Positions 3,863-12,509 are shown, counted from the first letter of the stretch. The stretch: DNA of 64,000 nt from a virus (IMGVR_UViG_3300024331_000007:32001-96000); one strand, 5' to 3'. Notes: a model not told the origin generated them from the sequence alone. Program-made: numbers and translations.

Positions 3863-3934
3863 ACAGGTAAGCAGGAATTGAACCTACTTTTCTGGCTCCA
3901 ATCGCCAGTGTCCTAGCCGATAGACGATTACCCT
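3863..3934 (-). pseudogene. Degenerate Gln-like tRNA (loop GA-TTG-GA, no CCA)
   Basis: Intact D-arm, CTGGC/GCCAG stem and T-arm; A at position 33; 3' CCA absent. Confidence 0.5.
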
Positions 3935-3956: not shown

Positions 3957-3976
3957 TGGCGGTCCCGACGAGATTT
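3957..3976 (-). pseudogene. Orphan 3' fragment of a tRNA (T-stem, acceptor strand, CCA), Asp-like
   Basis: Reads AAAT-CTCGT-CGGGACC-G-CCA and breaks in the T-loop next to the endonuclease gene. Confidence 0.6.
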
Positions 3977-4001
3977 ATTTGGTATTTTGATAAATATTGA
4001 T

Positions 4002-4646
4002 ATGCCCAATACCGCCAATCTCGTTTGTGATTATTGCAATTCAACTTTTGTTAGAACATCTAAAGATATCGCATCATCCCGAATCGCTAATTCTAAATCA
4101 AAATTCTGTTCTCGAACATGTATGGGATTATCCAATATAACAACGAAAACGGTTACGTGTTTACAATGTAACAAACTCTTTCAAAAACAAGCACATCGAA
4201 TTAAAAAATCACCTAATCATTTTTGTGATCGTTCATGCTCAGCCAAATATCACAATGTTCATAAAACTATTGGAACTCGGCGTTCAAAACTTGAAATTTT
4301 TCTGGAATCTAAACTTCGTAAGTCATATCCAGAATTGAAACTCCTGTGCAATGATAAATCTGCCATTAATTCAGAACTCGATTTCTACTTCCCAGAGTTA
4401 CAACTTGCAATAGAATTAAACGGAATACTCCATTTTGAACCCATTTATGGTAATAGCAAACTGACTCAAATTCAATCGAATGATACTAAGAAATCCTTTT
4501 TATGTCATCAGCAGCATATCAATCTTGCTGTTATCGACTGCTCTACATATTCTCATCTAACTGAAAAAGTTAAAAACAAATATTGGAACATTGTTAATAA
4601 CCTTTTAGCAAATATGGCGGGGAATATGGGTAACGATCCCACCTGA
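4002..4646 (+). CDS. Free-standing endonuclease: Zn-finger repeats plus DUF559/Vsr-like PD-(D/E)xK domain
   Basis: Repeated CxxC...FCSRxC; ELDFYFPELQLAIELNGILH; likely start MPNT 5 nt after TAAATA. Confidence 0.75.
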   Translation: MPNTANLVCDYCNSTFVRTSKDIASSRIANSKSKFCSRTCMGLSNITTKTVTCLQCNKLFQKQAHRIKKSPNHFCDRSCSAKYHNVHKTIGTRRSKLEIFLESKLRKSYPELKLLCNDKSAINSELDFYFPELQLAIELNGILHFEPIYGNSKLTQIQSNDTKKSFLCHQQHINLAVIDCSTYSHLTEKVKNKYWNIVNNLLANMAGNMGNDPT

Positions 4647-4694
4647 TATTCCTGATCGACAGTCAGGCAACCACTCCATGCAGTTCCATTCCCC
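4615..4694 (-). tRNA. tRNA-Asp(GUC), divergent T-loop
   Basis: GGGGAAT/ATTCCCC, G73, CCTGA-CT-GTC-GA-TCAGG, T-loop ATCGTTA, CCA; overlaps the endonuclease 3' end. Confidence 0.75.
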
Positions 4695-4708: not shown

Positions 4709-4783
4709 TGGCTCACCCCCTCAGAGTCGAACTGAGAACCAATGCCTTAACAGGGCACCGCTCTGCCATTGAGCTAGAGGTGA
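4709..4783 (-). tRNA. tRNA-Asn(GUU)
   Basis: TGCC-CT-GTT-AA-GGCA, TTCGACT, GCCA. Confidence 0.9.
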
Positions 4784-5099: not shown

Positions 5100-5519
5100 T
5101 TAATCTTTACAAGTAAATTCTAAGTAATCCTTTGCCCAACGAATATGCTTTTGTTGCTTACTTTTTGGTGCAATTAATCTTAATCGAGTTTCATATGTTG
5201 TTGCCTCGTTGACATCAACAAAATAAACTTGATTCAACTCTCTACAGTATACAGCAAATAATTCAATCTGTCCACGATAGTTTTGTTTTTTACCATTTGC
5301 TCTATGAACTGTTGAACTGCACGAATCAAAGCTAACAAATGATTGATCTTTTCCTAATCTACCCGTCTTACACTGAATACGAACAAATACACCATTATTG
5401 TCAACTACTAAATCATACCGGTTTTTATCTCCAAATGGAGTTAATACGGTTTTGCCTAGTTTTAGCAATTCAGCAACTACAACTGCTTGAGTTATATCGC
5501 CTATTTCCTTAGTATTCAT
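5100..5519 (-). CDS. PD-(D/E)xK endonuclease of the group-I-intron-associated type (PDDEXK_5 / I-Ssp6803I-like), free-standing
   Basis: KEIGDITQ...PFGDKNRYDLVVD...RIQCKT; start MNTKE with GGAAG RBS. Confidence 0.8.
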   Translation of the reverse strand: MNTKEIGDITQAVVVAELLKLGKTVLTPFGDKNRYDLVVDNNGVFVRIQCKTGRLGKDQSFVSFDSCSSTVHRANGKKQNYRGQIELFAVYCRELNQVYFVDVNEATTYETRLRLIAPKSKQQKHIRWAKDYLEFTCKD

Positions 5520-5534
5520 TTCTTCCTTTAAAAT

Positions 5535-5609
5535 TGGCTGAACAGGTGGGAGTCGAACCCACATCGTCTTGATTAACAGTCAAGCGTAATGCCGTTATAC
5601 TACCGTTCA
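5535..5609 (-). tRNA. tRNA-Asn(GUU), second copy
   Basis: CTTGA-CT-GTT-AA-TCAAG, TTCGACT, GCCA. Confidence 0.9.
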
Positions 5610-5713: not shown

Positions 5714-5789
5714 TGGTGCATTCGGAGGGATTTGAACCCCCATCAATTCGATTAAAAGTCGAGTATAATGTCCGTTATACGACGAATGC
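5714..5789 (-). tRNA. tRNA-Lys(UUU)
   Basis: TCGA-CT-TTT-AA-TCGA, TTCAAAT, ACCA. Confidence 0.9.
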
Positions 5790-6185
5790 ATTTTTTAAAT
5801 ACTTACTTGCCGCAACAAATAGTTTAGGATCATCATTAAATAATCCAAGAACTCTATTACAGGTATTACAGATTGCTCCTCTAAACTTTAATGTTTTGTG
5901 GTCGTGATCTAAAACCAATTTCTTTACTTTTCGATTACAAATCTTACAGACGCCATTGGCATCCTTTTTAATCTTTTCTATCGTTTCGTTTTTTGTACCT
6001 AATTTCTCTCGCCAACGATAGATTTCACGTTTTTCCTTTGTGCCGCTATAAAAACTTTGGGAAACTCGACAACACCAAACTTTCTTGTTCGATTTTAGAA
6101 CAATTGGTATGTATCCACAATGTTCGCATATCGCCATTTTATTTTGAACATCGATGTTTGTTAGTTTATGTACCCGTTTACCCAT
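5775..6185 (-). CDS. Endonuclease VII-like HNH nuclease
   Basis: CKIC...LVLDHDHKT..FRGAICNTCNRVLGLFNDDP; 3' end overlaps tRNA-Lys 5' end. Confidence 0.82.
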   Translation of the reverse strand: MGKRVHKLTNIDVQNKMAICEHCGYIPIVLKSNKKVWCCRVSQSFYSGTKEKREIYRWREKLGTKNETIEKIKKDANGVCKICNRKVKKLVLDHDHKTLKFRGAICNTCNRVLGLFNDDPKLFVAASKYLKNAFVV

Positions 6186-6202
6186 TTTCTTCCTAAAATG
6201 TA

Positions 6203-6226
6203 AAATCCTCGCCGTAGCGAGGATTT
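6203..6226. terminator. Hairpin, possible terminator or regulatory stem
   Basis: AAATCCTCGC-CGTA-GCGAGGATTT, perfect 10-bp stem. Confidence 0.45.
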
Positions 6227-6247
6227 GGAAAATACACAAATCCTCGC

Positions 6248-11218: not shown

Positions 11219-11575
11219 ATGTCTCATCCAAAAAACCGTGCCGAAAGAAGGAATCAACGCGAACGAGTCATCGCGGCTCGTCGCTTCGTGTATCTTCATA
11301 TCTGGTATCAGTGGCAAGATAAATACCAGTTCATGCGAGAAGTCTCTAATCCACTTATAAACATTGAGTATGTGTACGAAAAGTACAGGCTGACAAAAAT
11401 TCCGTTCAGTGGCGTTCAGGAATACCCAGATTGGGGGAAGTACGCTAAATGGAATCTTGCATGTACCTGTCGTCATTGTCGTAGGCAAAAGAAGTGGAGT
11501 AGACAGACAGCTAAAAATAGACACAAACTTAAAACTACCGATGCCGATTGGGAATTGCAATACTCAGATGATTAA
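11219..11575 (+). CDS. Hypothetical basic protein
   Basis: 118 aa, Arg-rich, CTCRHC. Confidence 0.6.
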   Translation: MSHPKNRAERRNQRERVIAARRFVYLHIWYQWQDKYQFMREVSNPLINIEYVYEKYRLTKIPFSGVQEYPDWGKYAKWNLACTCRHCRRQKKWSRQTAKNRHKLKTTDADWELQYSDD

Positions 11576-11748
11576 ATGTTGTGTTTCTCTGGAACCGTAG
11601 AAATAAAAACCAAAGCAACTGCCGTAACGGTTCTCACGTTGATGAACAACTCCTGTGGAGACTACTTAAATGCGAGTTTGAAACAGGAGAATTGGATCAA
11701 CTAGTTAGGTATTGATTAAGACAATATCGGCGGCAAACAATAATAGAA

Positions 11749-11776
11749 GGCTCAGCGTTCGCGCTGAGTCTTTTTT
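11749..11776 (+). terminator. Rho-independent terminator
   Basis: GGCTCAGCG-TTCG-CGCTGAGTC followed by a T-run. Confidence 0.8.
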
Positions 11777-11819
11777 ATTGCTCTTTGGTCAGAACACACC
11801 GAAAAACCTAAATACAGGC

Positions 11820-12509
11820 ATGAAAGACCTTCGTCTGTACCATAAAACCCTCATCGCACAGCATATAACGATCATTGCAGCTGTTATTTTCTTCTGTGTT
11901 GGTGCGTTTTTCGTAGGGAAGCAGCTTATTGCAACCCTTCAAACAGTTAATACCGCTGGAAATGATGTGCATGAGACATTCACGCTTGTAAACAGACCTC
12001 GAACAGGAACTCTTGCGGGGATCAACGAAGCGATTTTTGGTGCCAGTGCCTTAATGAAACACTCCAATGGCATTTTGGATCACGAAGAGAAGCAATTAAG
12101 CACTCTGGATAAGCAGGAAGCAGTTCTTTTTGAAGATTTACACAAGATTGCTGTTAACGCGAACGGAGGAATAACCAACCTCAATACAGCAACCACAACA
12201 TTGAACACGCTTTTGGGAAATATTAATAAAGCAGCACTGGAAGCTCCTCAACTTGTCGATAATATTTCAGAGTTGGCAGATAATCTATCCAAAACAACCG
12301 TGGATGCTGATAATACCCTGAATAGCAAAGACGTGAAAACGTTATTGGGATCGTTGGCTGGAACTTCAGTACAGGTTGAAGTAATTACCTCGAACGCGGC
12401 AAAAGTCACTACGCATCTTGAAAAAACGATAGATGCGCCACCAAGTATAAAGCAAAAGATCGAAGGAGCATTTGATCTACTTTGGAAGATTGGAATGTTA
12501 GTTCGTTGA
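11820..12509 (+). CDS. Membrane-anchored coiled-coil protein
   Basis: N-terminal TM segment, heptad-rich body; TAAATA-N5-ATG. Confidence 0.7.
   Translation: MKDLRLYHKTLIAQHITIIAAVIFFCVGAFFVGKQLIATLQTVNTAGNDVHETFTLVNRPRTGTLAGINEAIFGASALMKHSNGILDHEEKQLSTLDKQEAVLFEDLHKIAVNANGGITNLNTATTTLNTLLGNINKAALEAPQLVDNISELADNLSKTTVDADNTLNSKDVKTLLGSLAGTSVQVEVITSNAAKVTTHLEKTIDAPPSIKQKIEGAFDLLWKIGMLVR

Follow-up and report, generated by a model that had tools for sequence, protein, structure and literature searches.

Integrase islands and prophages reportedly sit in tRNA genes, flanked by attL/attR repeats of the tRNA 3′ part, as Williams is said to have described in 2002. In the phages T4 and T6 a free-standing GIY-YIG homing endonuclease, SegB, is found within the tRNA cluster (PMC2330249; PMC13096335). 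The target read by SegB is the T-arm motif GGTTCRANTCC, and cutting takes place at tRNA gene 3′ ends (PMC2330249); the enzyme drives inheritance of the tRNA region as well as its rearrangement, and is associated with many isoacceptors (PMC2330249; PMC13096335). For I-Bth0305I, a phage-borne nuclease with a Vsr-fold domain, the preferred site is the pseudopalindrome TTxG-N6-CxAA (PMC3239194). Here we describe a nuclease gene that is placed backwards inside the minus-strand tRNA array of a jumbo phage (IMGVR_UViG_3300024331_000007). The window, a stretch of 64,000 nucleotides (nt), corresponds to bases 32001-96000 of the 359,890-bp phage genome, which is a single contig; positions below are window coordinates unless marked otherwise. 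Beyond the start of the gene lies the orphaned 3′ end of one tRNA-Asp gene, and at its stop lies a second, complete but divergent tRNA-Asp that overlaps the open reading frame (ORF) in antisense. Sequence reading, ORF calling and ARAGORN placed all three features where a first-pass annotation of this DNA had put them. That annotation saw in the locus a snapshot of tRNA allele replacement; the locus is a decayed insertion site, not a replacement caught in the act, and belongs to a family of nuclease cassettes that settle in tRNA genes.

The ORF was called at 3987-4646 on the plus strand, with 219 amino acids (aa) from a TTG codon. The homologues begin with MP(N/T) and so the start codon is probably the ATG at 4002, which would give a protein of 214 aa. 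Over its final 32 nt, in the last 10 codons and the stop TGA, the ORF overlaps the tRNA-Asp gene in antisense. The protein contains two CxxC...CxxxC zinc fingers at approximately aa 6-90, followed by a C-terminal Vsr-fold PD-(D/E)XK domain at approximately aa 95-210. In an alignment of 35 proteins the eight cysteines of the two fingers are invariant, as are D127, E138, N140, H144 and E146, and the window protein keeps every one of them. Pfam gave weak zinc-finger matches only (zf-FCS/MYM), and in PHROGs the families termed 'homing endonuclease' and 'HNH endonuclease' were matched. An AlphaFold model (predicted local distance difference test score, pLDDT, of 88) was matched by Foldseek to Vsr (1cw0_A; probability 1.00, template modelling (TM) score 0.51) and to I-Bth0305I (3r3p_B; probability 0.94, TM score 0.58), and also to PvuRts1I and AbaSI, in their Vsr-like domains. 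At the level of the sequence profile 3r3p is a weak match (E = 0.63), and a residue-by-residue equivalence to the EDxHD motif is at most putative. The fold model and the conserved residues point to a Vsr-fold nuclease that is kin to, though not proven to be one of, the EDxHD homing endonucleases. The first-pass annotation had called the ORF a free-standing endonuclease, and this is borne out by its place between tRNA genes, the zinc fingers, the modelled Vsr fold and the PHROG homing families; we consider it a free-standing homing-type endonuclease with predicted cleavage activity. No host gene is interrupted in frame, Rfam detected no intron or ribozyme family at the locus (E ≤ 10), and Pfam and PHROGs identified no integrase domain in the cassette, which holds the single nuclease ORF only.

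As with SegB, a free-standing nuclease gene lies between phage tRNA genes. The folds are unrelated, however: SegB is a GIY-YIG enzyme with NUMOD elements, whereas the present family combines a Vsr-type PD-(D/E)XK domain with two zinc fingers, and SegB is co-transcribed with its tRNAs whereas the present family lies antisense to them. The resemblance to I-Bth0305I (PMC3239194; 3r3p) lies in the C-terminal Vsr-fold domain, the N-terminal DNA-binding region, the phage-borne setting and the existence of free-standing relatives; the tRNA T-arm is likewise a pseudopalindrome holding TTCG, comparable to the site of that enzyme. Unlike I-Bth0305I, the present protein has zinc fingers instead of a NUMOD helix-turn-helix, is associated with no intron or intein, and has tRNA genes rather than recA as its targets.

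A TAAATA box is situated 5 nt before the ATG, and also 5-9 nt before the ATG in one of the two further copies in the genome (paralogue 1), L001, L057, L065, L073 and others. The box may belong to a promoter or to the context of the translation start. A T4-type late promoter was considered and is not supported, as TATAAATA is not enriched across the window. No sigma-70-like site was found in the 5′ flank of the nuclease gene.

On the minus strand, 3976-3957 reads as the last bases of a T-loop, the 3′ strand of a T-stem, a 7-nt acceptor 3′ strand, G73 and CCA. Next come the A/T-rich trailer usual between tRNAs in the array and the following tRNA-like gene; the recognisable length of the orphan is 16-20 nt. 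Against canonical phage tRNA-Asp genes the orphan matches at 16/16 positions in L022 and at 15/16 in the second tRNA-Asp of L042, the latter an independent match, having been fetched for an unrelated reason. Within a set of 690 unique phage tRNAs the two nearest 13-nt tails both belong to tRNA-Asp, with 0 and 1 mismatches, and the next best has 3; we estimate at approximately 4e-4 the probability that a random 13-mer reaches 12/13 with any tail of this set. The exact 16-mer occurs 17 times in IMG/VR, which is approximately the chance number by our own estimate, with 15 of the matches in GC-rich coding DNA. The other two, in L022 and L027, stand in a tRNA context, and each forms the 3′ terminus of a canonical tRNA-Asp gene. 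Within 3 kb of the orphan there is neither a complementary acceptor 5′ strand, allowing G:U pairs, nor a 5′ half of an L022-like tRNA-Asp, which argues that the orphan is true and not half of a split tRNA. A split or intron-bearing tRNA with the ORF in its intron was ruled out on the same ground, together with the lack of any Rfam intron family. The orphan is therefore a genuine tRNA-Asp 3′ end with the break in or next to the T-loop; the first-pass annotation had noted its likeness to the Bacillus-type gene, and the comparison made here is with canonical phage tRNA-Asp.

The same arrangement was observed across the nuclease family. At most loci, reading outwards from the start codon on the tRNA-sense strand, 20-60 nt of A/T-rich DNA precede a tRNA fragment that runs from the T-loop to the discriminator, and this fragment often stands directly before the next tRNA. 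The start-side junction lies in the T-loop, at positions 54-61, and the stop side abuts or overlaps a tRNA 3′ end. At eight loci (L093, L070, L076, L067, L089, L075, L092 and L085) the fragment repeats the 3′ end of the stop-side tRNA without a mismatch over 13-20 nt, with repeat scores of 13-20 against a shuffled 95th percentile of 9-12, and in 6 of the 8 that tRNA was called intact by ARAGORN. Together these junctions and repeats uphold the earlier proposal of an entry by the nuclease at the T-loop. Among the repeats the first base is at position 54, 55, 57 or 61 and the last is close to or at 73. This variable start argues for microhomology in the T-loop over a fixed staggered cut. In young copies a 13-20-nt direct repeat of tRNA positions 54/61 to 73 thus leaves the invaded tRNA whole. 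The T-loop-to-3′-end fragments and perfect repeats make the window orphan, too, an insertion scar, in this case of a canonical tRNA-Asp invaded by the cassette. The two ends of the window cassette share CCGCCA only and there is no long direct repeat, which means that the orphan did not arise by decay of a copy of the resident tRNA-Asp. In L156 the cassette lies between a tRNA-Ser 5′ half and a 3′ fragment, with an intact tRNA-Ser next door. Many loci of the family carry a fragment unlike the neighbouring tRNA, and for the relics at other loci the nearest tRNA tails are 3-5 mismatches away.

The T-arm and the 3′ end, where SegB recognises and cuts its target, are the two bounds of the repeats in the present family. 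By analogy with T4 SegB, the nuclease would probably recognise conserved T-arm DNA and cut near the tRNA 3′ end. Cleavage has been demonstrated for SegB and is predicted here. For SegB itself, no flanking duplication of tRNA positions 54-73 is described in PMC2330249 or PMC13096335. The order of an intact tRNA, an element and a displaced tRNA 3′ part that starts in the T-loop is also that of the integrase islands. In contrast to these, the present element has no integrase, is shorter than 1 kb with a single nuclease gene, and makes its repeats anew for many tRNAs.

Two further features of these loci were noticed. In L085, 75-120 nt beyond the nuclease ATG on the minus strand, two tRNA 3′ relics stand in a row, the first degenerate and the second a perfect 13-nt repeat, which suggests repeated invasion of the same tRNA-Met gene. 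In L076, L067, L075, L085, L070 and L093 a conserved spacer of 55-60 nt separates the tRNA 3′ end from the nuclease stop, and compensatory changes are clear in its outer stem of 7 bp, in the inner hairpin and in another hairpin. This spacer, absent from the window copy, may act as a structured element of the cassette at the RNA or DNA level, or may stand in for the tRNA trailer.

The family is large. A protein search returned at least 850 relatives at E ≤ 1e-3, some of them named 'very-short-patch-repair endonuclease' by their source. The two further copies in the phage genome, at 11237-11869 (+) and 15006-14554 (-) in genome coordinates, are both within tRNA arrays; the three paralogues share 59-60% identity and each stands at different tRNAs. 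Among 44 more loci from IMG/VR there are tRNAs within 3 kb in 38, and in 35 of these 38 all of the tRNAs lie on the strand opposite the gene. The flanking tRNAs are of many different isoacceptors, dozens of different tRNAs in all. In the species collection the family is present in six genomes, four times in long tRNA arrays of filamentous cyanobacteria, antisense again. The family thus appears to be a mobile cassette of approximately 0.7-0.8 kb that settles in the tRNA genes of phage arrays and of some cyanobacterial ones, nearly always in antisense. As for its mobility, no empty site was found in a close relative of the window phage, and an empty-site search for the L093 insertion returned the occupied contig only. 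The cyanobacterial loci (L158-L161) are from Microcoleus, Oscillatoriaceae and Coleofasciculaceae genomes; upstream of tRNA arrays of the cyanobacterial type a different, HNH nuclease gene has been reported (PMC8421152).

The tRNA-Asp(GTC) at the stop of the window nuclease, 4615-4694 (-), is the sole tRNA-Asp that ARAGORN calls in the genome. It has G8 and G9, the D-loop GCATGGAGT, an 8-nt variable region, the T-loop ATCGTTA, in which positions 54 and 58 are A and T (A54:T58), an anticodon loop of C-T-GTC-G-A, G73 and an encoded CCA. In a 1-kb search Rfam RF00005 did not match it even at E ≤ 10, since G8, the D-loop, the 8-nt variable region and the A54:T58 T-loop all depart from the canonical form. 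A pattern built from the D-arm and anticodon loop identified the same type of tRNA-Asp in 17 further viral contigs, nearly always 80 nt long, and in 16 of the 17 there is no nuclease homologue in the flanks examined. In an alignment of 13 sequences all 21 cloverleaf pairs form in every member, and double compensatory changes were seen at 14 of them; none of 500 shuffles was comparable, and slid partners were 39-50% paired. The 54:58 pair itself covaries, being A:T in 11 members and T:A in 2. The pattern of covariation indicates that this type is a real tRNA from an old phage family, and the tRNA-Asp at the stop side most likely represents an independent, ancient phage lineage. An Asn gene followed by an 80-nt Asp gene, as in the window, was also found in L039, L046 and L054, all of them lacking the nuclease.

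The same scaffold, with G8 and G9, the D-loop and an 8-nt variable region ending in CAG, was also seen in 79-nt tRNA-Ala(TGC/GGC) genes of many phage arrays (L137-L153). In some of these the T-loop is canonical and in others it is ATCGTTA.

The only close relative lineage consists of L001 and L048, from one metagenome, and L145 from another, and is collinear with the window phage over the interval bounded by Glu and Trp genes on one side and Lys genes on the other. It carries an orthologous nuclease (58% identity) at the same place in the array, with its stop abutting tRNA-Asn. Its tRNA-Asp, at 96 nt and with a long extra arm, is another variant of the family to which the window tRNA-Asp belongs; beyond the start codon, approximately 400 nt that hold an intron-like tRNA and a small ORF come before it. 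As the tRNA-Asp is not adjacent to the nuclease in this lineage, the two are not a fixed unit. The first-pass annotation had proposed that the nuclease brought the divergent tRNA-Asp with it. That part is not supported, since the type is found in 16 contigs without a nuclease homologue in the flanks examined and on the other side of the nuclease, approximately 400 nt away, in L001, L048 and L145. A metagenome scan with the pattern of this tRNA-Asp sublineage returned only L145, with the L001 layout, and the tRNA-Ala family on the same scaffold, and none of the syntenic relatives sought through a small neighbouring protein was confirmed. A tRNA-like gene of L001, at 5846-5972 (-), has an anticodon-loop insertion of approximately 50 nt (GTG-type loop) and the T-loop ATCGTAC; it is not called by ARAGORN and lies directly beyond the relic of the orthologous cassette.

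The history we favour, with moderate confidence, combines the cassette family, the scar of a canonical tRNA-Asp and an independent 80-nt lineage. A canonical tRNA-Asp would once have stood beside the 80-nt tRNA-Asp as a pair for the same amino acid; such neighbours are frequent in this genome (Cys, Gly, Glu, Trp, Lys, Thr and Arg). The cassette would then have invaded the canonical copy. This copy would later have been lost, likeliest by deletion or recombination across the shared 3′ end CCGCCA, so that the tail of the nuclease came to read into the 80-nt gene. Several points weigh against this history. Neither an empty site nor a nuclease-free close relative was found, and the order of events is drawn from one relative lineage. 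Because the ends share only CCGCCA, a former repeat is not demonstrable at the window copy. Cleavage by any family member is a prediction by analogy, and the origin of the repeats is a further difficulty, their variable start fitting microhomology better than a fixed staggered cut. Both antisense cassettes of the genome abut its only two noted A54:T58 tRNAs, an adjacency that the favoured history takes as coincidence or later adaptation.

This last point leads to the alternative that survives best, which is a sharpened form of the replacement first proposed. Here the nuclease would read the canonical T-arm, and the allele with the cassette would have, or shortly gain, a tRNA in which T54:A58 is swapped to A54:T58 and which escapes cleavage. 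At this locus a canonical tRNA-Asp would have been cut and replaced by the nuclease together with a resistant 80-nt tRNA-Asp, the old 3′ end being left behind. Using structure-based loop calls we observed A54:T58 in 3/22 tRNAs abutting a nuclease 3′ end and in 5/288 other tRNAs of the same loci (one-sided Fisher p = 0.014, or p = 0.002 if an uncalled tRNA-Ser(GCT) of paralogue 1 is counted); the enrichment amounts to 3-4 cases and was noticed post hoc. At paralogue 1 the acceptor strand of the relic pairs 7/7 with the 5′ strand of the working tRNA, with a canonical T-loop in the relic and ATCGTGC in the working tRNA. In L157 the acceptor 3′ strand and discriminator are 7/8 identical, and a canonical T-arm in the relic is set against ATCGTTC in the working tRNA-Gly, although this locus was chosen for its protein tail and is not an independent count. 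The window cassette has Asp on both sides, and SegB needs GGTTCRANTCC (PMC2330249), a motif that ATCGTTA breaks. Yet the 80-nt tRNA-Asp type with ATCGTTA is widespread in the absence of the nuclease, and in the closest relative the two are not adjacent. The eight young insertions have canonical T-loops in both copies, canonical T-loops also stand beside the nuclease gene at five further bacterial loci, and T4 tolerates SegB sites in its own tRNA genes through low expression (PMC2330249). Classical homing by homologous repair would, moreover, leave the fragment of the donor and not that of the recipient. We therefore regard the sharpened replacement as unlikely, if worth keeping in view. The claim of a cleavage-resistant allele in the first-pass annotation accordingly stands divided, with the enrichment of A54:T58 beside the nuclease in its favour and the canonical loops of the young repeats against it. 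That annotation would also have counted against itself the joint presence of fragment and divergent tRNA in relatives without the nuclease; nuclease-free phages do carry the divergent type, and the fragment was found in none.

It is also conceivable, if distinctly improbable, that the mismatch between the two ends arose by recombination between paralogous cassettes, or with the cassette of a co-infecting phage, which joined the flanks of two insertion sites. There are three paralogues in the genome with 59-60% identity, and identical junction strings of 12-14 nt are found at both ends of paralogue 1 and the window copy despite the divergence of the genes. Window and L001 differ in the side of the nuclease gene on which the tRNA-Asp stands, the fragments unlike their neighbour tRNA at many family loci would have the same explanation, and rearrangement at microhomology driven by SegB has been documented (PMC13096335). 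However, the ORF aligns end to end with its L001 orthologue and no chimeric breakpoint is visible in it, the genome contains no reciprocal product, and Asp on both flanks would be a coincidence. That no tRNA ever stood there, and the orphan is a chance likeness or the upstream control region of the nuclease itself, could draw on its length of only 16-20 nt, on the chance nature of most exact 16-mer matches in IMG/VR and on an upstream TTCGA count at background level in the family, a count that is uninformative since the motif is palindromic and the loci are tRNA-rich, but is very improbable given that the tail agrees at 13/13 and 12/13 positions with two tRNA-Asp genes and at 10/13 with the next best, that its strand, trailer and array spacing are all correct, and that eight family loci have perfect repeats of the neighbour tRNA 3′ end at the same position.

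The genome as a whole has 41% G+C and 52 tRNAs by ARAGORN, with amber- and ochre-reading ones among them. No deposited phage is similar at the DNA level (blastn against the phage collection gave no match), and tblastn gave weak partial matches only. All tRNAs called by ARAGORN have canonical T-loops except the tRNA-Asp. Outside the window, at 11865-11956 (-) in genome coordinates (L154 1865-1956), we also noticed a class II tRNA-Ser(GCT) of 92 nt with the T-loop ATCGTGC, which was missed by ARAGORN and Rfam. Its minimum free energy structure is a cloverleaf with a long extra arm (-35.5 kcal/mol), and it would be the only Ser(GCT) of the genome.

The features at the locus are collected in Table 1. 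The tRNA-Gln(TTG)-like gene downstream of the orphan lacks CCA, has A33 and leaves its first acceptor pair unpaired, and there is a good tRNA-Gln(TTG) at 2011-2085; the weak gene may be a pseudogene or decaying. Two nuclease genes of other families are found in the same 2.3 kb. The first, at 5100-5564 (-), is an I-Ssp6803I-like PD-(D/E)XK gene (Pfam PDDEXK_5, E = 1.7e-40) with its start probably at Met16 near 5519, and sits between two different tRNA-Asn genes (4709-4783 and 5535-5609). The second, at 5775-6239 (-), is an endonuclease VII-like gene whose final codons overlap the 5′ end of tRNA-Lys(TTT).

Table 1. Features at and around the nuclease cassette, in window coordinates
Feature	Position	Strand	Basis
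Orphan 3′ end of canonical-type tRNA-Asp	3957-3976	-	Sequence reading; tail match to L022 and L042
A/T-rich 5′ flank of cassette	3977-4001	+	TAAATA box at 3991-3996
Predicted free-standing nuclease gene, probably 214 aa	4002-4646	+	ORF, alignment, fold model
tRNA-Asp(GTC), 80 nt	4615-4694	-	ARAGORN, family alignment, covariation
tRNA-Asn(GTT), 14 nt upstream of tRNA-Asp	4709-4783	-	ARAGORN, Rfam
Weak tRNA-Gln(TTG)-like gene, 22 nt downstream of orphan	3863-3934	-	ARAGORN, Rfam (36.6 bits)

Free-standing nucleases that reside among the tRNA genes of phages and read the T-arm are a known kind of element, SegB being the closest analogue. What is new, as far as the searched literature shows, is the family, which joins zinc fingers to a Vsr fold, its antisense placement, the duplication of target sequence by which the invaded tRNA is spared, and a possible link to swapped T-loops. 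A growing view of phage tRNA arrays is that they serve as counter-defence cargo, and the case of SegB shows them to be open to reshaping by a nuclease; another nuclease family, unrelated to SegB and very large, now appears to have converged on tRNA genes. The scar from the T-loop to the 3′ end offers a way to date and trace invasions in uncultured phages, and the family is a candidate source of new nucleases with sequence specificity, directed at a DNA motif that ranks among the most conserved in biology. A bolder proposal, which we put forward tentatively and hold to be doubtful, is that A54:T58 T-loops are immunity alleles against selfish nucleases that read the T-arm, both of this family and SegB-like. 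The window would then record a canonical tRNA-Asp destroyed and one with a swapped loop kept, and the family would be an undescribed tRNA-gene-invading cassette that duplicates tRNA positions 54-73 as it enters and so leaves the tRNA whole. If true, the link to A54:T58 would explain odd phage tRNAs that are missed by standard models, and would tie the evolution of a tRNA tertiary pair to conflict with selfish DNA.

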